DNA of 64,000 nucleotides from Bryobacteraceae bacterium. GTDB lineage: Bacteria; Acidobacteriota; Terriglobia; Bryobacterales; Bryobacteraceae. Every line of letters starts with the position of its first letter. The first letter of the stretch is position 1. Position numbers and translations under genes: made by a program. This document shows, in pieces, positions 4,489-32,967 of this stretch. The notes beneath the pieces were generated by a model. It did no database searches. It saw nothing but the letters and a program-made list of their open reading frames with translations, and was not told where the DNA came from. The DNA is taken from contig JAPWUP010000002.1 of assembly GCA_028275505.1 (NCBI GenBank), positions 9,965 through 73,964 on the forward strand, in the 5' to 3' direction.

Positions 4489-5408
4489 TCAGGCATTGCG
4501 CCTCGAACGCTCTTCTTCCCAGCGCGCCTGCTCTTCTTCGATGATGAGCAGGGCCTGGAACTCATCCGCGGCGATCTCATCCAGTGAGAGGCTGACGCCC
4601 AGTTTCAAGGCCGTTCGCAGATCGAGCGCCCGGCGCAGGAGTTGGCCCGCCTCGGAGTTTTGCGCGCCATCCAAGCGGTCGAGCGGGCAATGGTCGCAAC
4701 GGCCGCCGTCATCCGGTGCGTCCGGGCACAGTCGTGGATCGCAGAGTTGCTCCCGCCGCAGCGACCAGTAGACCAGGTAGCGCAGGGAGGGCCGCTCGGG
4801 CCACTCCCCGCTCAGCAGTTTCCCTCGCGCTCCTCAAAGCCGGCCTCGAGCGCATCGATGGCCGCCTTCACTGCTACCGCTTGGTGGATGATCGGGACGG
4901 CGCCGGCGTAGCCCTCGCTCGTCTGGCAGAGCTTCTGATACAGGGTGCCGGCAGCGGCCAAGTTCACCGTCAGCTCCTGGCGGTTGAAGGGCAGATCCAG
5001 AATGCGGGCAAAACCGCGGCGATACTCGATCACGTCTTTGGCGCTCGGCATGCGTAGCACGTGTTCGGTCATCCCACCGGGCACGCGCAGAACGACGCGG
5101 AACCCGCCCGCCTCCTCGAGCACCTCGTCCACATCTGCCTGGCCCAACTGCTCGATGATCCGGCTGGCTTCATAGGCGTCCAGTTCATCACCATCATCCA
5201 AGCGGATCTTAGCGAACAAGGCAGCATCCACCTCTTCGGCGTTCGGGATCGTCGTCTCCGAGACGCCGCGCCCCAGATGCTTGATGATGATCTTGCGGCG
5301 CCGCTGGCGCTCGATCCACTCCTCATCGTTCGGGAAGCGGACCCTGACCGTACGCGCGCCCTCGGCGGAGCGAAGCTGCACGTGGATTTCTTTTTGTGAA
5401 TCGAACAT
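4489..5408 (-). CDS. Tail assembly chaperone -1 frameshift fusion (lambda GT analogue)
   Basis: The -1 frame is open from 4833 to 4489 with no plausible own start. It reads ...GK LLSGEWPERPSL... after the slip at 4818-4824. Confidence 0.6.
4812..5408 (-). CDS. Tail assembly chaperone (lambda G analogue)
   Basis: Acidic protein between major tail and tape measure. Ends ...EEREGNC* with slippery G GGA AAC 2 codons before the stop. Confidence 0.7.
   Translation of the reverse strand: MFDSQKEIHVQLRSAEGARTVRVRFPNDEEWIERQRRRKIIIKHLGRGVSETTIPNAEEVDAALFAKIRLDDGDELDAYEASRIIEQLGQADVDEVLEEAGGFRVVLRVPGGMTEHVLRMPSAKDVIEYRRGFARILDLPFNRQELTVNLAAAGTLYQKLCQTSEGYAGAVPIIHQAVAVKAAIDALEAGFEEREGNC
4818..4824 (-). 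promoter_or_regulatory. Programmed -1 ribosomal frameshift heptamer G GGA AAC
   Basis: X XXY YYZ in the zero frame of the chaperone gene. The overlapping -1 ORF continues for about 110 codons. Confidence 0.6.
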
Positions 5409-7415: not shown

Positions 7416-7643
7416 TTACAGATCGTCGGGTTTTAGGCCCGTCTTTTCGGCCAGCAGCTTCAGCGCCACTGGTCCGAGCGTCACTTGGTCATGGTAGGCA
7501 AACAGCACATCAGGCCAGCCGGGTCTCTCCAAGATTCGGTGCGAGCCTCTCTGCCGCTTGATCCGCCAGCCAATGCGGAGGAGGGCAGCCAGCGCTTTCG
7601 AAGCTTTGACCGATGGCCAGCGGCCCGTAGACTCAGGCGGCAA
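7416..7643 (-). CDS. hicA: HicA-family toxin (prophage moron)
   Basis: KALAALLRIGWRIKRQRGSHRILERPGWPDVLFAYH...LGPVALKLLAEKTGL is a typical HicA/YcfA core with GSH. Confidence 0.75.
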   Translation of the reverse strand: MPPESTGRWPSVKASKALAALLRIGWRIKRQRGSHRILERPGWPDVLFAYHDQVTLGPVALKLLAEKTGLKPDDL

Positions 7644-7866
7644 CGAAGGACACCTGAAGTTCGCCCGGCACAGCCTCCCCGTGCTCCAACCGGTCGGCGA
7701 TCAAGCGTAAGGCCAGCGCCTGCGCCGCTGCGCAAGCCTGTTTCTTCGTGCGCCCATAAGCGGTGACTCCGGGTAGCGCCGGGATGTCCGCCAGCCAGCG
7801 CCCATCCTGCTCACGGTAGAACTTAACTTCCAGGACGAAATCCTGAATCCCGCGAGTCTTGCTCAT
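7633..7866 (-). CDS. hicB: HicB-family antitoxin (prophage moron)
   Basis: FVLEVKFYREQDGRWLADIPALPGVTAYGRTKKQACAAAQALALRLIADRLEHGEAVP is a UPF0150/HicB N-domain pattern. 11-nt overlap with hicA. Confidence 0.7.
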   Translation of the reverse strand: MSKTRGIQDFVLEVKFYREQDGRWLADIPALPGVTAYGRTKKQACAAAQALALRLIADRLEHGEAVPGELQVSFVAA

Positions 7867-23055: not shown

Positions 23056-23499
23056 GGCACAGGACCAAGCCATGCGTGCCATGGAGTATCAGCAACGAAA
23101 TCGTCGCCCCAAGCAAAATTCCTGTTCAACCAAGCAAGAGAGCCTATGAAGCGAAGGGAAATGCCGATTAAATCACGCAATTTTCATAGGCCTGCTCGAA
23201 ATAATCGGCACAGGCACGCTCGTTATTCACAGATTTTCCGCTAAAACTGGCGTGGAAATAAAGCGAATCACGGAGACCGAGAAGAATCGCGAGCCTCAAA
23301 ACCGGCGACGAGCCGTTCCACCAGGCGCGCTCCCTCGCTCGTCAAGCCTGGAACGCCACCCACCTGGAGACCTTCCGCGTCGCGCTCCTGCGCGCGCCCG
23401 ATTTGACCATGGCCGCTGGCCTCATCAGCACCGTTTGCCCTCCGCCACCCGTTGTGGTTTCCTGTCAGTAGGCAACGAGCTCGGAAAGAGAAGACGACG

Positions 23500-24492
23500 A
23501 TGACTGCGCTAGTCGCCCAGCAGCTGTTCCCCCTCACCTCACCCGCTCCGGGTCGCGCCAAGCTAGAGGCCGCCTTCGCCCAGTTCCTCCGCCTGGACGT
23601 GGCCTCCGGCGACGCCTCGCCCCAAACCATCCGCAGCTACCAAGCCGAGGTGGCGGCTTGGGTGCGCTGGTGTGAAATCAACAGCGTCGATCCGGCTACC
23701 GCGACCGTCGCCCACATCAAGCTGTTTCGCGCCGAGCTGGTCGAGCGTGGCTACCAGCCCGTCACCATCGGCTGGAAACTCACCATCGTGCGACGCTTCT
23801 ACGAAGCCGCCCGCAGCGCCGGCCTGCGCCCCGATAACCCCGTGGCCGGCATCCGCCCACCCCGTAGCCACAAGGCAGCCGAGGACTTCAAGTACTTGAC
23901 CAGCCAACAGCTCACACGCCTGCTGGCTACCGTGCCCAATCCCGATGAGGCCACCGGCGTCGAGCAAATCAAGCGCTTGCGCGATCGGCTCATGCTCTCC
24001 CTGATGGCGTTGCACGGACTGCGCACCATCGAGCTGCACCGCGCCAGCCTCGAGGATCTGACCGAGCGCGACGGCTACACCGCTCTGCTGGTGCGCGGCA
24101 AAACCCGCGAGCGCCTGGTCTACCTGCGCGCCGACACCGCCCAAACGCTCGCCCGCTACCTCGAGCTGCGCGGCGACATACCTCGGGACGGGGTCGGCAC
24201 ACCCCTGTTGGTGGCTTTGGACCGTGGCTTTCAAGGACACCGCCTTAGCCGCCGGCACATCCGCACCACCGCCGACCGCTACCTGCACGCCGCCGGCCTG
24301 AAGCGCCAGGGCCTGTCCTGCCACGCCTTGCGTCATACCGCCGCTACCCTGGGTTACCTGCACACCGGCGACTTGCGCGCCGTGCAGGAACTGCTCGGCC
24401 ACGCCGACCCGCGCACCACCGCCCGCTACGCACACGTGGTGGATGCCGCCCGCCGCAACCCAGCCCTGTTCATCCCGGTCAGTGAGCCATGA
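23500..24492 (+). CDS. int: Tyrosine recombinase / phage integrase
   Basis: N-terminal SAM-like domain (SPQTIRSYQAEVAAWVRWC). Catalytic LRTIELHR, HALRHTAAT, LLGHADPRTTARYAHV. Confidence 0.9.
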   Translation: MTALVAQQLFPLTSPAPGRAKLEAAFAQFLRLDVASGDASPQTIRSYQAEVAAWVRWCEINSVDPATATVAHIKLFRAELVERGYQPVTIGWKLTIVRRFYEAARSAGLRPDNPVAGIRPPRSHKAAEDFKYLTSQQLTRLLATVPNPDEATGVEQIKRLRDRLMLSLMALHGLRTIELHRASLEDLTERDGYTALLVRGKTRERLVYLRADTAQTLARYLELRGDIPRDGVGTPLLVALDRGFQGHRLSRRHIRTTADRYLHAAGLKRQGLSCHALRHTAATLGYLHTGDLRAVQELLGHADPRTTARYAHVVDAARRNPALFIPVSEP

Positions 24493-24604
24493 GTCCAAAC
24501 ACACCTCCGCCCCCCTGGGTCACAGTAAGGAAGGGAAGGCTCGGGGCGAGCCGCGCCGCTTACTTACCACGCGGCCGCATGTGGGAAACTAAGAGGGGAG
24601 CTTG

Positions 24605-24958
24605 ATGCGGAAACCACACGCAGCGGCATTCCGGCCGCCTTCAGCCGATGATCCCGTGCTGGCCGAGGTCGTGCGGCGCCTGGTCGAGGTGTATCATCCC
24701 CTGCGCATCTACCTGTTCGGCTCTGTGGCGCGCGGCGACGCCGGCCCAGACAGCGACTACGACATCCTGGTGGTGGTGCCCGACGGGGCGCCTCCGGAGC
24801 TGCAGGATAGCAAGTTGGGCTACCGAGCCCTTCAGGGTCTGCGGATCGCGAAAGACCTTCTGGTGTGGAAACAGAGCGACTTCGAAGGCCGGCTCCACTT
24901 GAAGGCCTCACTGCCCTCCACCGTGGTGCGGGAAGGCAAGCTATTGTATGCCGGCTGA
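24605..24958 (+). CDS. MNT-type nucleotidyltransferase (antitoxin of HEPN/MNT pair)
   Basis: LFGSVARGDAGPDSDYDILVV is the GS..RG..D.D motif. Confidence 0.75.
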   Translation: MRKPHAAAFRPPSADDPVLAEVVRRLVEVYHPLRIYLFGSVARGDAGPDSDYDILVVVPDGAPPELQDSKLGYRALQGLRIAKDLLVWKQSDFEGRLHLKASLPSTVVREGKLLYAG

Positions 24959-25361
24959 GGCCTTCCGGAACGAAGACACCAAGGCTTGGCTGCTCAAGGC
25001 CAGCCAAGATCTCCGGCGCGTCTCACTCTTGCTGGCTCTGACCCCACCCGACATTGAGGACGCACTCTTCCACGCCCAACAAGCTGTGGAGAAAGCCTTC
25101 AAGGCTTTGCTGACTTGGCACGATGTCCCTTTCCAGCGGGTTCACGATCTGGACGCCCTCGGCAGCCAGTGTGTTGACTTGGATGCGAGCCTGCGTGAAA
25201 TAGCCGCACGGGCAGAAGGTCTGAGTGCCTACGCCGTTCGCTTCCGCTATCCCGGCGCCCCTTACCAGCCTAGCCTCGAGGAAGCGCGCGCCGCCGAGGC
25301 AATCGCCCGCGAGGTCTTCGAAGCCATCCTGGCCCGCCTGCCCGAGGAAGTGCGGCCTTAA
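24948..25361 (+). CDS. HEPN domain protein (toxin of HEPN/MNT pair)
   Basis: 11-nt overlap with the MNT gene. FHAQQAVEKAFKALL ... AVRFRYPG are HEPN features. Confidence 0.7.
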   Translation: MPAEAFRNEDTKAWLLKASQDLRRVSLLLALTPPDIEDALFHAQQAVEKAFKALLTWHDVPFQRVHDLDALGSQCVDLDASLREIAARAEGLSAYAVRFRYPGAPYQPSLEEARAAEAIAREVFEAILARLPEEVRP

Positions 25362-25427: not shown

Positions 25428-25802
25428 TCAGAGAAGGCTCAGGCAGGCGCGCAGCGGTACACCCAACAGAGCACCGCAGCCAACACCTACCCCGTTAGCG
25501 ACAATGTCCCGCAGCTCCACCGCGCGCCCCGCCACGAAGTGCTGCAGCCCTTCCAGCACCAGCCCCAGCCCGAACATCGCGAGCCCCACGGTCAGCCCGC
25601 AGCGCCTCTCCCGAAACCCCATCACCGGCAAGGCCGCCAGCGCCAGGTAAGCAGCAAAGTGCAGCGCTTTGTCACTCACGGGAAGCTGGCTCACCGCCAC
25701 AACAAGTGGGGAGCTGGCGGGCAGTAGCGAGCCCACCACTACGCAGCCCATCAGGAGACCCCAGATGACCAGTACAGCGAGACGTTTGGTCGACTCAACC
25801 AC
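25428..25802 (-). CDS. VanZ-family membrane protein
   Basis: 4 hydrophobic helices. The DKALHFAAYLALA motif is typical of VanZ-like proteins. Confidence 0.6.
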   Translation of the reverse strand: MVESTKRLAVLVIWGLLMGCVVVGSLLPASSPLVVAVSQLPVSDKALHFAAYLALAALPVMGFRERRCGLTVGLAMFGLGLVLEGLQHFVAGRAVELRDIVANGVGVGCGALLGVPLRACLSLL

Positions 25803-26150
25803 GCTGCCTTCCTCACCTCACCTGTGTGCGCGGTCCAGCGCTCGTTTCACACATTAGGGGTTCGTGCACTTGTTCCGGGAGGGGGTTACCGAAACGCTCA
25901 CGACGGCCCCAGCACTGCACAAGAAACAGGGTTGTTGGTGCGCCCCATGAAGGCAGTCCAGCTATGCTCGGAAGGGATGAGCTTCATCCAGCTCATGCCC
26001 AGAGTGCTTGGTGCTGCTGCCCTGCGACGGACAGCACAGCCCCTCCTGTCGTCTCCTCTAGCACCCGCCCACTTCCTGTTCGCCGCCTGCTGACTATCGG
26101 TCCACGAGGTCAGGCAGCCGAAGGTCCGGCGAGCGGATGCCGAACTGGAC

Positions 26151-26843
26151 TTAGCGCAAGGTCCCGTAATAGCCGAGGGCGGGGTTGACTGGGCTTTTGT
26201 AAAGCAAGCCGTGCACCCCTGCCATGGGGTCGTTGTAGACCTCTTGAACGATGGCGAAGCTCCCCCAAACCTGTTTGCCCATTGGCTTGCCATTGAGGTA
26301 CACGGTAAGCTCGCGAGTGTCGGGCCATTCCGGCGGCCCAATGGTGGCGGACGTGGGAATGGCGACAATCTTCACGAAGTAAGTCCAGTGAGCGCCGTCC
26401 GCCATGTCCGACTGGTGATTCGTCAGCCATGCCCCCGAACCCTCATAGGACGAGAAGCCGTGATGCCGGTCCAGCAAGCCATCGCCATCACAATCCTTGT
26501 TGCTCAACCAGGCATCGTTCCACTTCATGTTCAGCGTGATGGACCGATACGGCCAGTACCACTTCTGGGCTGCCTCGGGGTGTGCGGCCAGATAACTCGT
26601 ATCGTCACCCTCGTAAGGCGGCAACCCATCTCGCCCGAGGTAGGCATTGGCGTAGGACCCCACGAACAAATGGGCCTCATAGTTGTATCCAAAAATATCG
26701 AAACCCGGCTTGAGCGGCTGACCTGCCAGGTAATGACCCTCGGGGTAACGGAGTATCCCTTGGCGAATGGTGGTGCATACTTGGGCCTCAAGCACGCTGC
26801 CGAACCCTGCTAACAGCGTCAACCAAACGGTACCTCGACTCAT
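26151..26843 (-). CDS. Secreted hypothetical protein
   Basis: ATG 26843. Signal-like MSRGTVWLTLLAGFGSVLEAQ. Trp/Tyr-rich. No family recognised. Confidence 0.45.
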   Translation of the reverse strand: MSRGTVWLTLLAGFGSVLEAQVCTTIRQGILRYPEGHYLAGQPLKPGFDIFGYNYEAHLFVGSYANAYLGRDGLPPYEGDDTSYLAAHPEAAQKWYWPYRSITLNMKWNDAWLSNKDCDGDGLLDRHHGFSSYEGSGAWLTNHQSDMADGAHWTYFVKIVAIPTSATIGPPEWPDTRELTVYLNGKPMGKQVWGSFAIVQEVYNDPMAGVHGLLYKSPVNPALGYYGTLR

Positions 26844-27142
26844 TGCTGAACCTCCTTCATACATCCGCTCATGAACGATGCGGGCACCTCAACGTCATTC
26901 TGGAACGGGCGGCCAACGAGAAGATGGCCGCCCGCGCCCCAACGTCCTGTAATCCGATCGGCGATGTGTGCAAAATACTTGAGATCTGCGGAGAGCTGAA
27001 ACCCGAAGTCGCTCCGAGGGACGGGGTGGCCCGTGGGACCCCAGCGCACCGGATCAGCACTGCGGAAGAAGATCCACGAAGTAGAGAGCTCGTTCGCCTT
27101 GGGTGCAATCGTCGTAGCCGCACCCGAGGGCACTATGTTCAC
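26840..27142 (-). CDS. Hypothetical protein, translationally coupled to 26151-26843
   Basis: ORF with an ATGA stop/start overlap to the downstream gene. No motif recognised. Confidence 0.3.
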   Translation of the reverse strand: MNIVPSGAATTIAPKANELSTSWIFFRSADPVRWGPTGHPVPRSDFGFQLSADLKYFAHIADRITGRWGAGGHLLVGRPFQNDVEVPASFMSGCMKEVQQ

Positions 27143-27183
27143 CCTCCTCGGCGATTTGAAGCAGACCCCGCGGGTTCACTCTG

Positions 27184-27320
27184 AACGTCCGGCGCTTCGC
27201 ACCCTGACCACCGGCATCGCAGCCAGGTTCCGGTGCAAGGCCTCCGCAAACGGCACCAGCACCGTGGGAGCCGAGCCAGCTCCAAAACAGCGCTCCAGGC
27301 GCAGGTAACCATGCGGCTTC
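27184..27320 (-). pseudogene. Remnant of the 3' end of a wecA-like gene
   Basis: 137 nt align by eye to 30046-30182 (the end of the intact transferase). Peptide RCFGAGSAPTVLVPFAEALHR.L...PVVRVRSAGR is shared. Confidence 0.6.
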
Positions 27321-27369
27321 GGTTGAACTCCGGCGCCACCACGGTCCTGCGTACCACCCAATTAGACCC

Positions 27370-27636
27370 TCAAGCCTCCAGAAACTCTTCCGAACTGATA
27401 CCTGCCCGCTTTAAGATTGCCCGCAGGGTCCCTCCAGGCATATCCCCCGGGTGATTTGGGACCGTTGTGTAGCGGTTTGTATCGGGGTTAGACCAGATCT
27501 CGTGGCTGCCTGCTGCCTGGTGGTCAAAAGGAAAACCCAAACGCTTCAGCTTGCGCACGATCTCCGGGTACCGAAACCCAGCCAGGCGGGCCCACTCATC
27601 CTCCCACCGGGATCGTGCACTCAGTCCGCTCCGCAA
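27370..27636 (-). CDS. hicA: HicA-family toxin (pair 1 of the island)
   Basis: IVRKLKRLGFPFDHQAAGSHEIWSNPDTNRYTTVPNHPGDMPGGTLRAILKRAGIS. The start is uncertain. Confidence 0.7.
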   Translation of the reverse strand: MRSGLSARSRWEDEWARLAGFRYPEIVRKLKRLGFPFDHQAAGSHEIWSNPDTNRYTTVPNHPGDMPGGTLRAILKRAGISSEEFLEA

Positions 27637-27826
27637 CCGCGGGCACAGTCACCCTTCCCTCTCTCTCCCGCCGAGCCTCGATCAAGCGGCTGGCCACGTC
27701 CCGGGCTATCTCAAGCGCTTCGGCGGCCGTCCGGCCTTGAGCCACCAGGCCCGGCAGATCTTCAGAGGTGGCTAAGTAAACGCCTTCCGGCTGCCTCTGG
27801 ATCTGCATGCGAATCACGAACTCCAT
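27596..27826 (-). CDS. hicB: HicB-family antitoxin (pair 1)
   Basis: ATG 27826. QPEGVYLATSEDLPGLVAQGRTAAEALEIARDVASRLIE. Confidence 0.6.
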   Translation of the reverse strand: MEFVIRMQIQRQPEGVYLATSEDLPGLVAQGRTAAEALEIARDVASRLIEARREREGRVTVPAVAERTECTIPVGG

Positions 27827-27900
27827 AAGCACTCTGATCTCACCAGTGTCCCCGAGGGTTGAGCGCCCAGTCGCCCCAGCTCGACGTCGAGAGAGCGATT

Positions 27901-28170
27901 TCACTGGGTCGCAGCTTGCGCAGCCGGAAGCCTGCCCCTGCGAATCAGCTCACCCCAAATCCATTCGTAGGTGATCCGCAGGCCCTCCTCGAGCGGCGTC
28001 TGCGGCTCCCAGCCCAACACCTGCCTGAGGCGCGTGTTGTCGCTGTTGCGCCGGCGCACACCTCGGAGCCGACGCACCCGCCTCCAGCGCCGGCATACAT
28101 TGCGCCGGAGGAAGGTCAAAAAGAGGGCCAGCACAAAAGAGGTGACCGCCAAAACAGCCCGTAAATACAT
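27901..28170 (-). pseudogene. Chimeric remnant: first ~29 codons of a wecA paralogue fused to the last ~50 codons of the GME-like epimerase
   Basis: MYLRAVLAVTSFVLALFLTFLRRNVCRRW (cf. the intact MYSLAVLAFTSFLLALLLTPLWRNLCRRW), then GVRRRNSDNTRLRQVLGWEPQTPLEEGLRITYEWIWGELI (cf. the intact GME C-terminus). Confidence 0.6.
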
Positions 28171-28221
28171 GGGTACCTACGCGGCGCGAGGCCCGCTCCC
28201 GGAATTCGATATGCTGGAGGC

Positions 28222-28491
28222 ATGCTGTTTTACCACGTGGCCTTTTATCTGCCCCGAGGCAGTGACCATATGGTCGTCGCTGAAGCGCTCGATTTCCCTG
28301 GCGCCCTCAGTCAGGGCTTCGACCTGGCCGACGCCCGCCTGATGATCGCCAGTGCGATCCAAGAACTGGCTGAGGCGCTGTTGGAGGAGGGCAAGCCCCT
28401 GCCGCGGCCAGACCCGATGGTTTCCGCTCCCGATGCTGATTTGATCGAGCTCGTGCCCGTAAGCGTCGAGGGCGGGGTGCCTCGCCGATGA
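28222..28491 (+). CDS. hicB: HicB-family antitoxin (pair 2)
   Basis: VVAEALDFPGALSQGFDLADARLMIASAIQELAEALLEEGKPLPRP. GGAGG 5 nt upstream of the ATG. Confidence 0.6.
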   Translation: MLFYHVAFYLPRGSDHMVVAEALDFPGALSQGFDLADARLMIASAIQELAEALLEEGKPLPRPDPMVSAPDADLIELVPVSVEGGVPRR

Positions 28492-28715
28492 AACGCCACC
28501 AGTTACTCCAACACCTTGAGCGCTGCGGCTGTCGGCTGGAACGTGAGCGCCGATGGCATTCCATCTACGTGCATCCTGAAACTGGTGCGCGCACTACGGT
28601 GCCCCGTCATTCCGAGATTGACAACCGCCTCGCCGCGAAGATTTGCCGCCAACTGGGTGTCGCACCGGCAACCGAAAGATCATTAAGTAGCTGCACCGCA
28701 GGACTGTTCGGCTGA
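28488..28715 (+). CDS. hicA: HicA-family toxin (pair 2)
   Basis: MKRHQLLQHLERCGCRLERERRWHSIYVHPETGARTTVPRHSEIDNRLAAKICRQLGV. 4-nt overlap with hicB. Confidence 0.7.
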   Translation: MKRHQLLQHLERCGCRLERERRWHSIYVHPETGARTTVPRHSEIDNRLAAKICRQLGVAPATERSLSSCTAGLFG

Positions 28716-29012
28716 CAGGGCCGCAGCCTGCGCCGGCTTGAGTTTGCCGCCCTGGATCAGCTCTCCCCGGATCCATTCATACGTGATCCGCAGGCCCTCC
28801 CCGAGCGGCGTCTGCGGCTCCCAGCCCAACACCTGCCGCAGGCGCGTGTTGTCACTGTTACGCCCCCTCACCCCTTGCGGCTTCGTCAAATCATAGCGCT
28901 TGCGAATCCGCTTGTCGGCAATCCGCGCCACGATATCCACCAGGTCGTTGATGGAAACCAGCCGGTCCGTGCCCAGATTTTCCGCAGCCGACCTCTCGGA
29001 CAGTTTTTTCAT
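28683..29012 (-). pseudogene. Remnant of the 3' third of the GME-like epimerase gene
   Basis: NLGTDRLVSINDLVDIVARIADKRIRKRYDLTKPQGVRGRNSDNTRLRQVLGWEPQTPLGEGLRITYEWIRGELI is nearly identical to the C-terminus of 31921-32967. DNA 28726-28979 aligns with 31982-32235. Confidence 0.65.
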
Positions 29013-29085
29013 TATGACCGTGCGGCAGCCTCGAGGGCAAGCAGCCTCTGGCGAGCCTGCCGCACGTAGTGGAAGTTCAATCTTT

Positions 29086-30036
29086 TCACCAGCCTGACAA
29101 CAGCCACTGCGCGAAAGCCCGCAAGCCCGCTTTGAATTCAGTCCGTGGCTCATAGCCGAGCAGACGCTTGGCCTTGCTGACGTCGGCCCATGTCTGAGGC
29201 ACGTCACCCGGCTGCTCCGGCAAGTACTCGCAGCGCGCTTCAACGCCCAAGGCTTCTTCAAGCGCTCGGATCATTTCGCGCAGGCTCACGGTGCGATTGT
29301 TGCCCAGATTGATAACCTCATAGCGACTGCCATCAAACTCCATGGCTGCGCGCAAGCCGGCAACCACATCGTCCACGTAAGTGTAATCGCGCCGGCTGGA
29401 GCCGTTCCCGTATACCGGCACCGCTCCCCCGCGTAGCATCTGACGCGCAAACTTGTGAATCGCCAGATCAGGCCTCTGCCGCGGCCCATACACCGTGAAC
29501 AATCGCAGCGCTAAGAACCGAATGCCGTAAAGGTGACTGTAAACGTGCCCGAGTAGCTCTCCGCTCACCTTCGTGCTGGCATACGGGCTTATGGGCAGCA
29601 ACACATGGTCGTCCTCGCGCCAGGGTACGCGCGGGTTCACCCCATAAACGCTGCTCGATGACGCAAAGACGAATTGTCGCACTCCCCACTCCTTGGCTAG
29701 CTCGAGCAAATTCTGGGTACCGCGGACATTGACCTCCTGATAAGCGAGCGGGTCCTGCAAGGAGGGACGGACACCAGCTTTGGCCGCCAAGTGCACAATG
29801 ACTTCATAATCGCCAGTCAGTCGCTCGCGCAATGCGCTGAGATCCCGCAGATCTGCCTCAACCAACTGGAAATTTGGGTGCCCCTGACACCTGGCCAGGT
29901 TGGCGCGCTTGACAGCCGGGCTGTAAAACGGGTCGAAGTTATCCACCACCGTGACGCGCCAGCCCTCGGCCAACAGCTTCTCCACGAGGTGGCTACCGAT
30001 GAATCCCGCTCCGCCGGTGACTAACGCCCTTCTCAC
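29086..30036 (-). CDS. SDR-family NAD-dependent sugar-nucleotide epimerase (UDP-hexose/uronate 4-epimerase type)
   Basis: LVTGGAGFIGSHL, SSSSVYG, YASTK. GTG 30036 with GAGGG upstream, 8 nt after the wecA stop. The ORF-track N-terminal extension overlaps wecA and is discounted. Confidence 0.8.
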   Translation of the reverse strand: MRRALVTGGAGFIGSHLVEKLLAEGWRVTVVDNFDPFYSPAVKRANLARCQGHPNFQLVEADLRDLSALRERLTGDYEVIVHLAAKAGVRPSLQDPLAYQEVNVRGTQNLLELAKEWGVRQFVFASSSSVYGVNPRVPWREDDHVLLPISPYASTKVSGELLGHVYSHLYGIRFLALRLFTVYGPRQRPDLAIHKFARQMLRGGAVPVYGNGSSRRDYTYVDDVVAGLRAAMEFDGSRYEVINLGNNRTVSLREMIRALEEALGVEARCEYLPEQPGDVPQTWADVSKAKRLLGYEPRTEFKAGLRAFAQWLLSGW

Positions 30037-30043
30037 GAGGCCC

Positions 30044-31456
30044 TCAACGTCCGGCGCTCCGCACCCTGACCACGGGCGCCTCAGCCAGCTTCCGGTGCAA
30101 CGCCTCCGCAAAGGGCACCAGCACCGTGGGCGCCGAGCCAGCTCCAAAACAGCGCTCCAGGCGCAGGTAACCGTCCGGCTTCAGCGGAATCTCGATCCTC
30201 CAGCAAGGCTCCCCATTGGTCGCCGCCAGATCCTCTTCAAAATACCGACCCGCCCAGCTCATCTCGGCGCGCGCGAAACCAAAACGCTCCGAGGCCTCGC
30301 GCACCGCCCGCCAGCGCTCCTCCAATGTCTGCGCCCGTTGCAGGGCTTCCTCGAAAGCCTGCAGAGCAAGCTGGCTGGCCAAGTGCCGGCGAAAAGCCCC
30401 CTCCAGGAACATCCGCCCCGCGGTCCCAAACTCCACATAACCCAAATGCTGGACCCCAATCCAGGCCGCCGCGCAGAACAGCACAATGATCAGCCCCTTG
30501 GCCTCCCCACGGCTCAGACTGCTCATCAGCGACAGCGCCGCCGCCAAACCGCAGGCCCCGTACAGCATCAGCACGGCTCGCCGCGGCGTCAGCCCCCGCG
30601 CCAGCAGCCGATGATGGATGTGCCCGGTGTCGGGCGCAAACAAGGGCTGGCCCCGCAGAAAGCGCCGCGCAATGGCAATCGCTGTGTCCAGCAGCGGCAC
30701 CGCCAGCGCCATCAACGGCGCTGTCATACCCAATACCGTGGCCGACTTCTGCCCCCACAGTACGGCGAAGCAGCCCAGCAGGAACCCTAAGGTCAGGCTG
30801 CCCGAATCCCCCAGAAAGATCGAGGCAGGGTTGAAGTTGTAGCGCAGGAAACCAGACAGCGCCCCAGCCAACGGCACCGTCGCCAGCGCTAGCCCCATAT
30901 TGTCCTGAAGCAGAGCGCCCAACAGGATGGTCACCGTGGCGAACAAGGCTGCGCCCGCGCCCAGTCCATCCACGCCGTCAATCAAGTTGAAGGCGTTCGA
31001 GCAGCCCGCCAGCCACAGCAGCGTCCCTGGCAGGCTCAGCCAAGTGGGCACCGCAAAGCCGGCCACGCTGGTGATCTGCACCCCGGCCCAGAAGACGATG
31101 TAGCCGGCGGTGAACTGCACGGCCAGCTTCTGCCATGGCTTCAACCCGCGTAGATCATCCGCCAGCCCGGCCAGGAAGACCAAAGCGGCGCCGGGCAGAA
31201 TGCGCCAAGCCATCGGCAGGGCGCTCTGCACGAGATTGCCGCCAGCGAGCGGCGTGACCATCAGCAGCGCGAGGGCGCCCAGGTAAGCGGCAAGGATCGG
31301 CACGCCGCCCACCCGCGGCACTGGCACGCAGTGCAAGCGCCGCCCGCCGTCAGGCTGATCCACCCACCCCCACCGCCGGCAAAGATTGCGCCACAGGGGA
31401 GTCAGCAGCAGCGCGAGCAGGAAGGATGTGAATGCCAGGACGGCCAGCGAGTACAT
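30044..31456 (-). CDS. WecA/WbpL-like polyprenyl-phosphate hexosamine-1-phosphate transferase (GT4/MraY superfamily) with a ~110-aa cytoplasmic C-terminal extension
   Basis: About 10 TM helices. NAFNLIDGVDGL, FLGDSGS, HIHHRL motifs. Confidence 0.8.
   Translation of the reverse strand: MYSLAVLAFTSFLLALLLTPLWRNLCRRWGWVDQPDGGRRLHCVPVPRVGGVPILAAYLGALALLMVTPLAGGNLVQSALPMAWRILPGAALVFLAGLADDLRGLKPWQKLAVQFTAGYIVFWAGVQITSVAGFAVPTWLSLPGTLLWLAGCSNAFNLIDGVDGLGAGAALFATVTILLGALLQDNMGLALATVPLAGALSGFLRYNFNPASIFLGDSGSLTLGFLLGCFAVLWGQKSATVLGMTAPLMALAVPLLDTAIAIARRFLRGQPLFAPDTGHIHHRLLARGLTPRRAVLMLYGACGLAAALSLMSSLSRGEAKGLIIVLFCAAAWIGVQHLGYVEFGTAGRMFLEGAFRRHLASQLALQAFEEALQRAQTLEERWRAVREASERFGFARAEMSWAGRYFEEDLAATNGEPCWRIEIPLKPDGYLRLERCFGAGSAPTVLVPFAEALHRKLAEAPVVRVRSAGR
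30046..30182. repeat. wecA 3'-end repeat (intact copy), partner at 27184-27320
   Basis: Read-by-eye alignment with few mismatches over 137 nt. Confidence 0.6.
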
Positions 31457-31486
31457 AGCTCAGAAGGTGTTACACTGGTTTCCGGT

Positions 31487-31759
31487 ATGGCCCTACGCTA
31501 TGTGCTCACTGACTACCTCGAACAGGCTTTGGCGCAGGCCATTTACGACAAGCTCGAAGACGGCAGCTTCGCCGGTCGGATTCCCGCCTGCCCCGGCGTA
31601 GTTGCCTTCGGCGCCAGCCTGTCCGAGTGCGAGCACGAGCTGCGATCGACGCTGGAAGAATGGATTCTCCTGGGCCTGAAGCTGGGTCACCCGCTGCCGG
31701 TAATCGGCGGCATCGATTTGAACCGGGAGCCGCTGCGTGAGCCGGTGGACGCCCTGTAA
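31487..31759 (+). CDS. hicB: HicB-family antitoxin (pair 3)
   Basis: DGSFAGRIPACPGVVAFGASLSECEHELRSTLEEWILLGLKLGHPLP. Confidence 0.55.
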   Translation: MALRYVLTDYLEQALAQAIYDKLEDGSFAGRIPACPGVVAFGASLSECEHELRSTLEEWILLGLKLGHPLPVIGGIDLNREPLREPVDAL

Positions 31760-31967
31760 GCGCCGCGACTTCATTCGAAAGCTGCGCTCGCTGGGGTTCG
31801 ACGGGCCGTTTTTCGGGACGCGGCACTCCTTCATGGTGTGGGGCGCACATCGCTTGGCGATCCCTTCCAATGCCGAGTATTCTGTCGCCCAATTACGCAT
31901 GCTGCTCAGCGAGGTGGAGGCTATCCTGGGACGACCTGTGAGCCCCGAGGAGTGGGAGGGACTCTAA
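31737..31967 (+). CDS. hicA: HicA-family toxin-like protein (pair 3)
   Basis: CKRRDFIRKLRSLGFDGPFFGTRHSFMVWGAHRLAIPS. It overlaps hicB by 23 nt, and its 3' end overlaps the convergent epimerase by 47 nt. Confidence 0.55.
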   Translation: MSRWTPCKRRDFIRKLRSLGFDGPFFGTRHSFMVWGAHRLAIPSNAEYSVAQLRMLLSEVEAILGRPVSPEEWEGL

Positions 31968-32967
31968 CCTCAACCCCGCCCGCCTGCGCCGACTCCAGCC
32001 TCCCTGTCCGAATGAGCTCGCTGCGGATCCATTGGTACGTGATCCGCAGGCCTTCCTCGAGCGGCGTCTGCGGCTCCCAGCCCAACACCTGCCGCAGGCG
32101 CGTGTTGTCGCTGTTGCGCCCTCTCACCCCTTGCGGCTTCGTCAAATCATAGCGCTTGCGAATCCGTTTGCCGGCAATCCGCGCCACGATATCCACCAGC
32201 TCGTTGATCGAAACCAGCCGGTCCGTGCCCAGATTCAGCGGATGGGGATAGTCGGAGCGCATCAGCCGGTACAGGCCCTCCACGCAGTCGTCAATGTAAC
32301 AGTAGGAACGCGTCTGCTGCCCGTCACCCCACACCTCAATCTCATCCCCATCGTTGGCCAGCGCCACCTTGCGGCAAATGGCCGCCGGCGACTTCTCCCT
32401 GCCGCCATCGTAGGTTCCCAAGGGTCCGTAGATGTTGTGGAACCGCACCACCCGTGTCTCCAGACCAAAATCCTCACGGTAGTGGCGGCAGGTGCGCTCC
32501 ATATAGAGCTTTTCCCACCCATAGCCGTCTTCGGCATCTGCGGGATAGGCGTCTTCCTCCTTGAGGGGCGTCACATCCGTCGTGTTCTGCCGGTAGCCCG
32601 GGTATACGCAGGCGCTCGAGGTGAAAAGAAATCGCTTCACACCGTGAATGCGCGCCGCCTCGATCGTGTTGATGTTGATCATCGTGTTGTCGCGCACGAT
32701 CTCGCCTTTGTAGGTCTCGATGAACCCGATGCCGCCCATGTTCGCCGCCAGGTGATACACCTCATCCACACCGCGCATGGCGATCAGGCAGTTGTCAAAC
32801 CGACGCAGGTCCAGCAGCTCGAATTCGTGCGCTACCGTTGGTTCGAACTCCGGGTATTTGATATCCACTCCCCGCACCCGGTAGCCACGGGCGACAAGAT
32901 ATTTCACCAGATGATGGCCTATAAAGCCGCCAGCACCGGTAACCAAGACCAGCTTAGTGTCCGGCAT
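31921..32967 (-). CDS. GDP-mannose 3,5-epimerase-like SDR enzyme
   Basis: Collinear with the plant GME sequence as I remember it: TGAGGFIG.H, LAANMGGIGFI, IEAARIHGVKRF.F.SSACVYP, YGWEKL, RFHNIYGP.GT..GGREK.PAA.CRK, VWGDG.QTRS, GVRGRNSDN, GLRITY.WI. ATG 32967; the upstream ORF extension is discounted. Confidence 0.8.
   Translation of the reverse strand: MPDTKLVLVTGAGGFIGHHLVKYLVARGYRVRGVDIKYPEFEPTVAHEFELLDLRRFDNCLIAMRGVDEVYHLAANMGGIGFIETYKGEIVRDNTMININTIEAARIHGVKRFLFTSSACVYPGYRQNTTDVTPLKEEDAYPADAEDGYGWEKLYMERTCRHYREDFGLETRVVRFHNIYGPLGTYDGGREKSPAAICRKVALANDGDEIEVWGDGQQTRSYCYIDDCVEGLYRLMRSDYPHPLNLGTDRLVSINELVDIVARIAGKRIRKRYDLTKPQGVRGRNSDNTRLRQVLGWEPQTPLEEGLRITYQWIRSELIRTGRLESAQAGGVEVRVPPTPRGSQVVPG
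31982..32235. repeat. GME 3'-end repeat (intact copy); partners 28726-28979 and ~27911-28062
   Basis: Shared core GATCCGCAGGCC.TCC.CGAGCGGCGTCTGCGGCTCCCAGCCCAACACCTGCC..AGGCGCGTGTTGTC.CTGTT.CGCC in all three copies. Confidence 0.7.

Follow-up and report, generated by a model that had tools for sequence, protein, structure and literature searches.

Relics of a GME-hicBA-wecA junction, stacked with three different toxin-antitoxin pairs at the end of a polysaccharide cluster in a Bryobacteraceae bacterium

The window considered here is a 64,000-nt stretch of DNA from a Bryobacteraceae bacterium (assembly GCA_028275505.1, contig JAPWUP010000002.1, positions 9,965 to 73,964), and its source is a MEGAHIT metagenome contig of 78.5 kb (ENA assembly ERZ27247212). 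The relatives of its WecA put it in Acidobacteriota, near Bryobacterales/Solibacter. A polysaccharide cluster occupies the minus strand from approximately 50 kb down to 29 kb of the window and encodes, according to Pfam, glycosyltransferases, an aminotransferase, an acetyltransferase, a methyltransferase and a GDSL esterase. The cluster ends, in order, with a gene for GDP-mannose 3,5-epimerase (GME), a convergent hicB1-hicA1 toxin-antitoxin (TA) pair, a WecA-type transferase and a second epimerase of the short-chain dehydrogenase/reductase (SDR) family. Beyond this intact unit the GME-hicBA-wecA junction recurs twice as relics, each time with a different hicBA pair. This stack of junctions is a confirmed and well supported feature. 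With a rough probability of 0.58, it arose by serial additive recombination of the type known as homology-facilitated illegitimate recombination (HFIR), in which the resident hicBA pair would have been kept at each step because its loss would be lethal. The features of the stack, from the intact unit outwards, are as follows.

31921-32967, minus strand: GME of unit 1, intact GDP-mannose 3,5-epimerase (Pfam Epimerase; 365 bits to PDB 8sg0/2c59)
31737-31967, plus strand: hicA1, a 76-aa HicA-like protein convergent with GME (fold model, hhalign, homologue names)
31487-31759, plus strand: hicB1, a 90-aa HicB-like antitoxin of UPF0150 (PF21748, 94 bits)
30044-31456, minus strand: wecA of unit 1, intact WecA-type initiating glycosyl-1-phosphate transferase of 470 aa (PF00953, Glycos_transf_4)
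29086-30036, minus strand: epi2 of unit 1, a second SDR-family NDP-sugar epimerase/dehydratase (Pfam; PDB matches)
29019-29066, minus strand: strong hairpin with a 15-nt stem, 20 nt past the epi2 stop codon (inverted repeat, 93% complementary)
28716-28979, minus strand: GME' relic of unit 2, the final 254 nt of a second GME allele (89.8% identical to 31982-32235)
28488-28715, plus strand: hicA2, HicA toxin of unit 2 (PF07927, 44.9 bits)
28222-28491, plus strand: hicB2, an 89-aa HicB-like antitoxin of unit 2 (weak HicB_lk_antitox match, 20.6 bits; homologues paired with HicA)
28075-28170, minus strand: wecA'' stub of unit 2, the first ~32 codons of a distant wecA allele (69.8% identical to 31361-31456, E 7e-5)
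27901-28063, minus strand: GME'' relic of unit 3, the final ~160 nt of a third GME allele with its natural stop kept (86% identical to unit 1, 82% to unit 2)
27596-27826, minus strand: hicB3, a 76-aa HicB-like antitoxin of unit 3 in the same direction as the cluster (weak DUF1902 match; model)
27370-27558, minus strand: hicA3, HicA toxin of unit 3, 62 aa from GTG 27558 (PF07927, 65.3 bits)
27181-27320, minus strand: wecA' relic of the oldest layer, the final 140 nt of a wecA allele (91.4% identical to 30043-30182)

Through self-BLASTN of 26-34 kb against the whole window, the GME 3' end at 31982-32235 was matched to 28726-28979 (89.8% over 254 nt, E 5e-95), and its part at 31997-32131 to 27929-28063 (85.9% over 135 nt, E 1e-39). 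The two relics, GME' and GME'', are 82% identical to each other over 161 nt (28715-28875 with 27903-28063, E 4e-40). The 3' end of wecA (30043-30182) recurs at 27181-27320 with 91.4% identity over 140 nt (E 4e-52). The match of the wecA 5' end (31361-31456) to 28075-28170 is weak (69.8% over 96 nt, E 7e-5) and is backed by the shared peptide pattern MY..AVLA.TSF.LAL.LT.L.RN.CRRW. A separate repeat search of the window returned the same repeat families. An earlier note on this DNA, made from the letters alone, had described the GME 3' end/hicBA/wecA junction as occurring three times in tandem, and the repeats (E 5e-95 to 1e-39) and open reading frames (ORFs) lie where it had placed them. The ORFs of the intact unit are as it described them, in agreement with Pfam and PDB, and its second unit (a 254-nt GME end, hicB2-hicA2 and a short wecA start) stands as well, the stub being ~32 codons long (E 7e-5). 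For the third unit the layout was right and two details are corrected: the ORF with its start at 27139 is not genuine, and the relic of wecA spans 27181-27320; and within the hicB-hicA pair at 27826-27370, itself correctly recognized, hicA3 most likely starts at GTG 27558, as called in strains L133 and L134.

In all three copies, similarity ceases in the alignments where the GME gene naturally ends (close to the GME stop codon, as the earlier note had put it), and the similarity of wecA ends at its stop codon. The natural GME end was located from strain L038, in which GME closes the cluster with no TA pair behind it. Read from the cluster outwards, the layers are the intact GME-hicBA1-wecA-epi2; the GME' 3' end with hicBA2 and the wecA'' stub; the GME'' 3' end with hicBA3; and the wecA' 3' end. 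The joins were localized by alignment to 28063-28075, approximately 28980-29019, and 27320-27370. The wecA'' 5' stub is fused in frame with the GME'' relic of unit 3, and this fusion ORF is disrupted by a 1-nt indel in L121, L123, and L124. In the wecA' relic, the stop codon has been mutated from TGA to TCA according to the alignment. The hairpin past epi2 (29019-29066) probably marks the end of the newest block. The retained stubs may carry the promoters of the TA operons. A consensus scan for promoters and terminators gave no guidance here, with 2 promoter-like sites where 0.8 would be expected and neither of them upstream of a hicB gene.

Three further details of these boundaries were observed. 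Both convergent TA pairs abut a GME end in which the GME frame lacks its natural stop and terminates within hicA antisense (31921-31967 and 28683-28715), such that the final ~8 codons of the unit 1 GME run antisense into hicA1. The extended hicA2 ends at a TGA that, read on the opposite strand, is the GME' stop of unit 2 after its mutation from TGA to TCA. The starts of hicB1 and of the divergent wecA are only 30 nt apart, and a 15-nt inverted repeat (31445-31459 and 31497-31511, 87% complementary) lies across this gap; it could be a HicB operator, or else a product of chance.

The relics are imported alleles and not local duplicates, as judged from the ratio of nonsynonymous to synonymous divergence (dN/dS). 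For GME against GME', dN/dS is 0.25 with a synonymous divergence (dS) of 0.26; for GME against GME'' it is 0.13 (dS 0.54), and all comparisons with GME'' give 0.13-0.15 with dS ~0.55. For wecA, the values are 0.30 (dS 0.18) against the wecA' 3' end and 0.11 (dS 1.65) against the wecA'' 5' stub. In-place decay of truncated duplicates would give a ratio of ~1. The relic pieces were therefore parts of working genes in diverged lineages until shortly before their truncation. Within unit 2, the dS of GME' (0.26) and that of wecA'' (1.65) lie far apart, which shows that recombination blocks also meet within the TA spacer. The three HicA and the three HicB proteins are mutually different, as the earlier note had reported, with at most 31% identity over short local alignments. 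The same note had spoken of cassettes, a term that does not apply here in its integron sense; the units are successive alleles of one junction with pieces of the flanking genes.

The stack is also present in 13 further contigs from 12 other metagenomes (ENA, JGI), which were recovered by exact-protein look-ups and are 95.8-99.3% identical to the window, with strain-specific differences. Strain L037, on the other hand, is 97.3% identical from the GT4 glycosyltransferase gene to epi2, diverges 10 nt before the epi2 stop (homology ends at 29096) and lacks units 2 and 3. The arrays found are of these two kinds only: 13 contigs have the complete stack and L037 has none of the old layers, and an intact unit 2 or unit 3 on top was seen in no strain. 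In L039 and L136 (88% nucleotide identity), GME-hicBA1 is held in common with the window, unrelated genes lie upstream and the similarity stops at the GME start codon; GME-TA-wecA is therefore the conserved flank of a strain-variable cluster. GME itself is conserved at 82-90% nucleotide identity among the layers, as it is among strains L037, L038, L039, and L136. Two observations on single strains may be added. In L132, codon 72 of epi2 (L132 2141-3100, corresponding to window 29086-30036) has changed from R to a stop, so even a gene of the newest layer has been inactivated in one strain. In L121, the first 180 nt appeared 95% identical to unit 1, as gene conversion between stacked GME ends might produce; this candidate was rejected, because the figure came from an alignment that was cut short and covered the conserved portion of the repeat.

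Among more distant relatives, seven (L046, L058, L060, L068, L088, L114, and L116) have GT4, GME and wecA contiguous, with a spacer of 50-215 bp and no TA pair. Narrow hidden Markov models (HMMs) of the three TA families found none of them in the other ~110 GME or wecA loci, a search in which other TA types would be missed. The relatives of hicA2 (59-72%), of hicB3 (70-72%) and of hicA1 (78%) all lie in unrelated contexts, and closer relatives of hicB3 (91-96%) all lie within the same stack. Homologues of the TA pairs (69-78%) adjoin gltB, an FGGY kinase, a TIR protein or an RNase J-like gene, or sit in a region resembling a defence island. The TA modules thus move independently of the sugar genes. 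Self-similarity that is significant, HMM and fold calls that hold, and relatives without three intact paralogous units are what was found on the three points that the earlier note had named beforehand as able to overturn its reading.

Selective constraint drops layer by layer from unit 1 to unit 3. Between strains, the ratio of nonsynonymous to synonymous polymorphism (pN/pS) is 0.02-0.15 for the sugar genes of unit 1 (GME 0.02 against L037; wecA 0.05-0.09; epi2 0.07-0.15), 0.19-0.26 for hicBA1 (over the 88%-identity lineages), ~0.3-0.5 for hicB2, ~1 for hicA2 and ~1.1 for hicB3, the values for the small genes resting on 4-13 substitutions. For hicA3, 9 nonsynonymous differences and 1 synonymous difference separate the window from L129-L134. 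The toxin genes follow the same gradient. In unit 1, hicA1 is intact in all strains that cover it fully (L037, L039, L118, and L132) and in L136, and hicB1 is intact in L037, L039, L118, L129, and L132. In unit 2, hicA2 of the window carries G21R and R23W beside the catalytic His, together with a stop-loss extension to 75 aa from 65; the two substitutions are found in four of eight strains including the window, three of which have also lost the stop codon, and L118, L132, L133, and L135 keep the consensus REG-RH and the natural 65-aa length. In unit 3, the window has an intact hicA3; in 5 of 12 strains its frame is broken by one of two independent 1-nt deletions, the first in L118 alone and the second shared by L121-L124. 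The hicB ORFs are open in every strain, with hicB2 intact in all and hicB3 open in 13 of the 13 strains that cover it. The toxins thus erode before the antitoxins, with the erosion confined to units 2 and 3. Chromosomal TA systems are reported to decay in two steps, the toxin being lost first (Belot et al. 2026, PMC13617665), and the window agrees with this. Serial stacking with decay of the older copies, as the earlier note proposed, is supported by the dN/dS values, by L037 without units 2 and 3, by the falling constraint and by the erosion of toxins in units 2 and 3 only.

The assignment of the six small proteins to HicA and HicB, made in the earlier note from the letters alone, holds for all of them, three by scores above the Pfam cut-off and three by fold or operon context. 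Above the cut-off are hicA2 (44.9 bits) and hicA3 (65.3 bits) on PF07927, where the cut-off is 27 bits, and hicB1 on UPF0150/PF21748 (94 bits). hicB2 is a probable HicB with a sub-threshold HicB_lk match (20.6 against 27 bits), and its homologues are always paired with bona fide HicA; those with 69-74% nucleotide identity are paired with HicA in the unrelated contexts of L125 and L126. hicB3 is likewise sub-threshold in Pfam. Its model, which like that of hicA1 was built from homologue alignments, has a predicted local distance difference test (pLDDT) score of 80.6 and matches HicB structures of E. coli and B. pseudomallei with probability 1.00 (top structures 6u0i, 6hpb_B, and 6g1c), and its 5687 homologues are named HicB by NCBI and JGI. 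hicA1 has no sequence match in Pfam, NCBIfam or PDB. Its AlphaFold model (pLDDT 92.7) shows an alpha-beta-beta-beta-alpha fold, best matched by 1WHZ, which we take to be a HicA-family structure (TM score 0.72/0.77, probability 1.00), and next by the HicA chains of 6g26 and 6hpb. When hicA1 is compared with the HicA profile by hhalign, the G-x-R-H-S motif is aligned (probability 58%), and some of its 1159 homologues are named HicA by NCBI. From its fold, hicA1 is predicted to be a HicA-like toxin, and its subfamily escapes the HicA model of Pfam.

hicB1 and hicA1 overlap by 23 nt and hicB2 and hicA2 by 4 nt, and a gap of 37 nt separates hicB3 from hicA3. The first two pairs lie on the plus strand and the third on the minus strand. 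In all three pairs the antitoxin gene comes first; in E. coli the order is the reverse, hicA and then hicB. A fourth hicB-hicA-like pair was observed at 7416-7866 of the window on the minus strand, with a 77-aa HicB-like protein (7633-7866) and a 75-aa HicA-like protein (7416-7643) that contains a GSH motif. The ORFs around it are phage-like in appearance. hicBA modules are evidently abundant in this genome.

The explanation proposed here regards GME-wecA as the conserved right flank of a strain-variable cluster of the O-antigen or exopolysaccharide type in a Bryobacterales/Solibacter-like population, with a short GME-wecA spacer that would be occupied by hicBA modules differing by lineage. 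Foreign junction alleles would have been imported at least three times, each being added upstream of the resident junction and not replacing it. The left end of an import would enter by homologous recombination within the cluster, and an illegitimate join would put its right end immediately before the resident TA pair, through HFIR or an equivalent RecA-dependent additive event. Recombinants that lost the resident hicBA would die from the freed toxin, and additive outcomes alone would survive, each addition pushing the old junction downstream. The redundant GME and wecA copies could then be trimmed by deletion up to the TA operons, which would persist until their toxin was inactivated and drift thereafter. 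TA-mediated stabilization of chromosomal regions is in itself established (Szekeres 2007; Wozniak and Waldor 2009, as cited in PMC7167474).

Several points weigh against serial addition enforced by addiction. Approximately 40 nt between the epi2 hairpin and the GME' relic are unaccounted for. L037 may be a deletion derivative instead of a donor-like state. No contig with an intact GME'-hicBA2-wecA'' or GME''-hicBA3-wecA' was found in the databases, in which this lineage is thinly sampled. The substitution counts behind the pN/pS of the small genes are low, and TA3 is now evolving neutrally, so any addiction by it lies in the past. hicBA pairs are common in the genome, as the fourth at 7416-7866 illustrates, which weakens any argument from the presence of TA alone. 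We know of no demonstration of natural transformation or HFIR in Acidobacteriota. Finally, TA systems are reported not to preserve chromosomal neighbourhoods over the long term (Belot et al., PMC13617665).

A stronger form of the proposal would make the hicBA pairs of the GME-wecA spacer guards of the locus. Clean replacement would then be lethal, with the resident antitoxin lost and the incoming HicB non-cognate, and survival would be limited to additive, illegitimate joins. We advance this only tentatively and would sooner doubt it than hold it. If it were true, TA pairs would bias the evolution of serotype-type loci and leave behind a stratigraphy of imports, and a general "TA ratchet" could be searched for elsewhere.

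The serious alternative, which we consider unlikely, is that the same serial additive recombination took place with the TA pairs as passive passengers: hicBA modules would fill this spacer across the whole population, the relics would be neutral leftovers still awaiting deletion, and addiction would be irrelevant. It would accommodate the lack of purifying selection on hicB3 and hicA3, the frequency of hicBA pairs in the contig, the reported failure of chromosomal TA to stabilize neighbourhoods over long periods (PMC13617665) and the GME' relic downstream of hicA2, which has no obvious reason for retention. It accounts less well for what has been kept. The older layers consist of a TA operon and at most 254 nt on each side, and their GME and wecA copies have each lost over 1 kb; the antitoxin ORFs are open everywhere and it is the toxins that carry inactivating changes, as expected if deletion is tolerated only after toxin loss; and the stack persists over lineages that are 3-5% apart. 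With the TA pairs as passengers only, the locus would still offer a clean case of serial additive recombination, but no more than that.

A Campbell-type origin is distinctly improbable. Circularized fragments of the form "GME 3' end - hicBA - wecA..." would each integrate by a single RecA crossover in the GME 3' homology and leave a partial GME repeat, which fits the observation that each layer opens with a partial GME 3' end in direct repeat of the next; homologous recombination would suffice, and the unit indeed contains no recombinase gene. However, the repeats are interleaved (GME, wecA, GME', GME'', wecA') and not nested, such that extra deletions would be needed, and the circles would have to be very small (~0.8 kb for unit 2). 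The in-frame wecA''/GME'' fusion is explained no better in this way than by an illegitimate join.

Tandem duplication of GME-TA-wecA in situ, followed by divergence, TA replacement and deletion, would yield a repeat order resembling the one seen (A, B, A, A, B). It was rejected as very improbable on dN/dS, since synonymous changes dominate (0.11-0.30) and the wecA 5' stub reaches a dS of 1.65; nor are the three TA pairs related to one another (at most 31% identity). Equally hard to sustain is site-specific capture of the TA pairs, integron-like or integrase-mediated, by the tyrosine recombinase at 23452-24492. This gene adjoins an MNT/HEPN pair, and in relative L002 a 76%-identical integrase lies 2.7 kb from wecA with VapBC beside it. 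The recombinase is Xer-like, however, and matches the integron-integrase model TIGR02249 over its C-terminal 70 residues only (49.5 bits against a cut-off of 265); it lies 2.7 kb past the last relic, and nothing implicates it in the stack. The intact and presumably newest unit is the one farthest from it, the TA pairs are not co-oriented, and the units drag along truncated pieces of flanking genes, unlike cassette exchange. The earlier note had raised the possibility of att-like cores at the junctions; repeat and inverted-repeat searches of the window found no attC-like sites or other shared inverted repeats at the TA seams, and site-specific capture was rejected on this ground together with the Xer-like nature of the integrase. 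That an assembler concatenated strain variants of one junction, as one might suspect of a MEGAHIT metagenome contig, is next to impossible, since the same relic order was assembled independently, with strain-specific differences, in 13 contigs from 12 other samples and at least two data sources, and repeats of 82-91% identity are too divergent for merging in a k=141 graph.

The earlier note knew of no mechanism that would build such a stack without a recombinase in the unit. One has been proposed, as HFIR or "sequential displacement," for the orphan immunity arrays of the Vibrio cholerae type VI secretion system (T6SS) (Kirchberger et al., 2017, PMC5361080), and that paper cites the same idea for Rhs and contact-dependent inhibition (CDI) loci. 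In both the T6SS arrays and the present stack, an intact upstream module is followed by displaced older modules, each older module combines the 3' end of the displaced gene with a gene whose loss would kill, the alleles were horizontally acquired and not duplicated, and the unit contains no recombinase. The HFIR proposed for the T6SS arrays is anchored in conserved upstream sequence, and by analogy the same mechanism may have built the hicBA stack. The two differ in several respects. The T6SS arrays retain an immunity gene against attack by sister cells, whereas the window retains a complete type II TA pair, that is, self-addiction; the displaced genes of the window are sugar-nucleotide and initiating-transferase genes and not toxin domains; its relics include the 5' stub of a downstream gene (wecA'') besides 3' ends; and intermediates have not been observed for it.

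The HicAB systems of E. coli, B. pseudomallei and Y. pestis (reviewed in PMC11594946) resemble those of the window in their small HicA with a fold like that of double-stranded RNA-binding domains and a conserved His, in a HicB with a partial RNase-H-like N-terminal domain, in their bicistronic, overlapping or closely spaced genes and in their high mobility among genomic contexts. Apart from gene order, the window differs in that its HicB proteins are 76-90 aa long with no C-terminal DNA-binding domain, and in the 76-aa subfamily of hicA1. Studies of TA stabilization and erosion (PMC13617665 and PMC7167474) likewise describe TA that persist where neighbouring DNA is lost, toxins that are inactivated first, and TA clusters in small high-turnover spots, sometimes near integrases. 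These studies cover integron arrays, integrative and conjugative elements and general hot spots, and not a stack of allelic junction relics pinned by different TA pairs. In the literature searched, no description was found of TA-pinned relic stacks in polysaccharide loci.

The setting is otherwise a familiar one. O-antigen and capsule loci switch by recombination between conserved flanks (galF/gnd in E. coli, dexB/aliA in pneumococci), and they share with the window a hypervariable glycosyltransferase region, conserved genes that act as homology arms and common remnants at the edges. Classical replacement at such loci is clean and reciprocal, and remnants are usually associated with insertion sequences and not pinned by TA. 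What is new here is that TA pairs pin relic layers at a polysaccharide locus; stacking without a recombinase is already in the literature.

In the displacement arrays described so far (T6SS, Rhs, and CDI immunity), the retained gene protects against attack by a neighbour. If serial addition enforced by addiction is correct, an ordinary type II TA pair plays the same role through self-addiction, at a locus unrelated to toxins, and chromosomal TA pairs steer the outcome of recombination at hypervariable surface-polysaccharide loci. This would explain the frequent occurrence of TA pairs beside gene fragments. For an uncultured soil phylum, the layers would also lay out the natural course of TA decay over time, from constrained to toxin mutated, toxin frameshifted and neutral drift. 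A demonstration that the TA pairs force additive recombination would add to the interest of the locus.

Beyond the oldest relic, the window continues with the following features.

25698-27168, minus strand: strain-variable segment just past the stack, containing a 237-aa ORF (26151-26864)
25428-25802, minus strand: VanZ-like gene (Pfam VanZ)
24602-25361, plus strand: MNT/HEPN toxin-antitoxin-like pair (PF01909, PF05168)
23452-24492, plus strand: Xer-like tyrosine recombinase at the edge of an island (Pfam; NCBIfam XerC/D-like, ~145 bits)

The segment at 25698-27168 is replaced by an unrelated ~630 bp in L118, L122, L123, L129, L131, L133, and L134, and the breakpoints, 27168 and 25698, are identical in all seven strains and lie directly after the wecA' relic. 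Its 237-aa ORF has no Pfam or NCBIfam match. The VanZ-like gene is probably the ancestral right neighbour of wecA. In relative L010, wecA (69%) is directly followed by a VanZ gene (59%), and a VanZ-like gene lies beyond the stack in the window, so the wecA' relic probably marks the original end of the cluster. The 64-kb window contains no tRNA genes and therefore no tRNA-linked island boundary, and an Rfam scan of it found no known RNA.

The island itself extends from ~17.3 to 24.5 kb and contains a SNF2 helicase, DUF7307 and a DnaA_C-like gene. In relative L002 (wecA 81%), the related integrase is accompanied by a VapBC-like pair (PIN and ribbon-helix-helix proteins) in the equivalent place (L002 3575-5182). 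The association "wecA ... TA ... integrase" is thus conserved between L002 and the window (23452-25361), with a differing TA pair. L037, which lacks the integrase and the island, keeps 74 nt (5043-5116) that are 77% identical to window 24459-24532, that is, the last codons of the integrase and ~40 nt downstream. This stretch may represent an att site or, alternatively, a scar left by an island that has since been lost.

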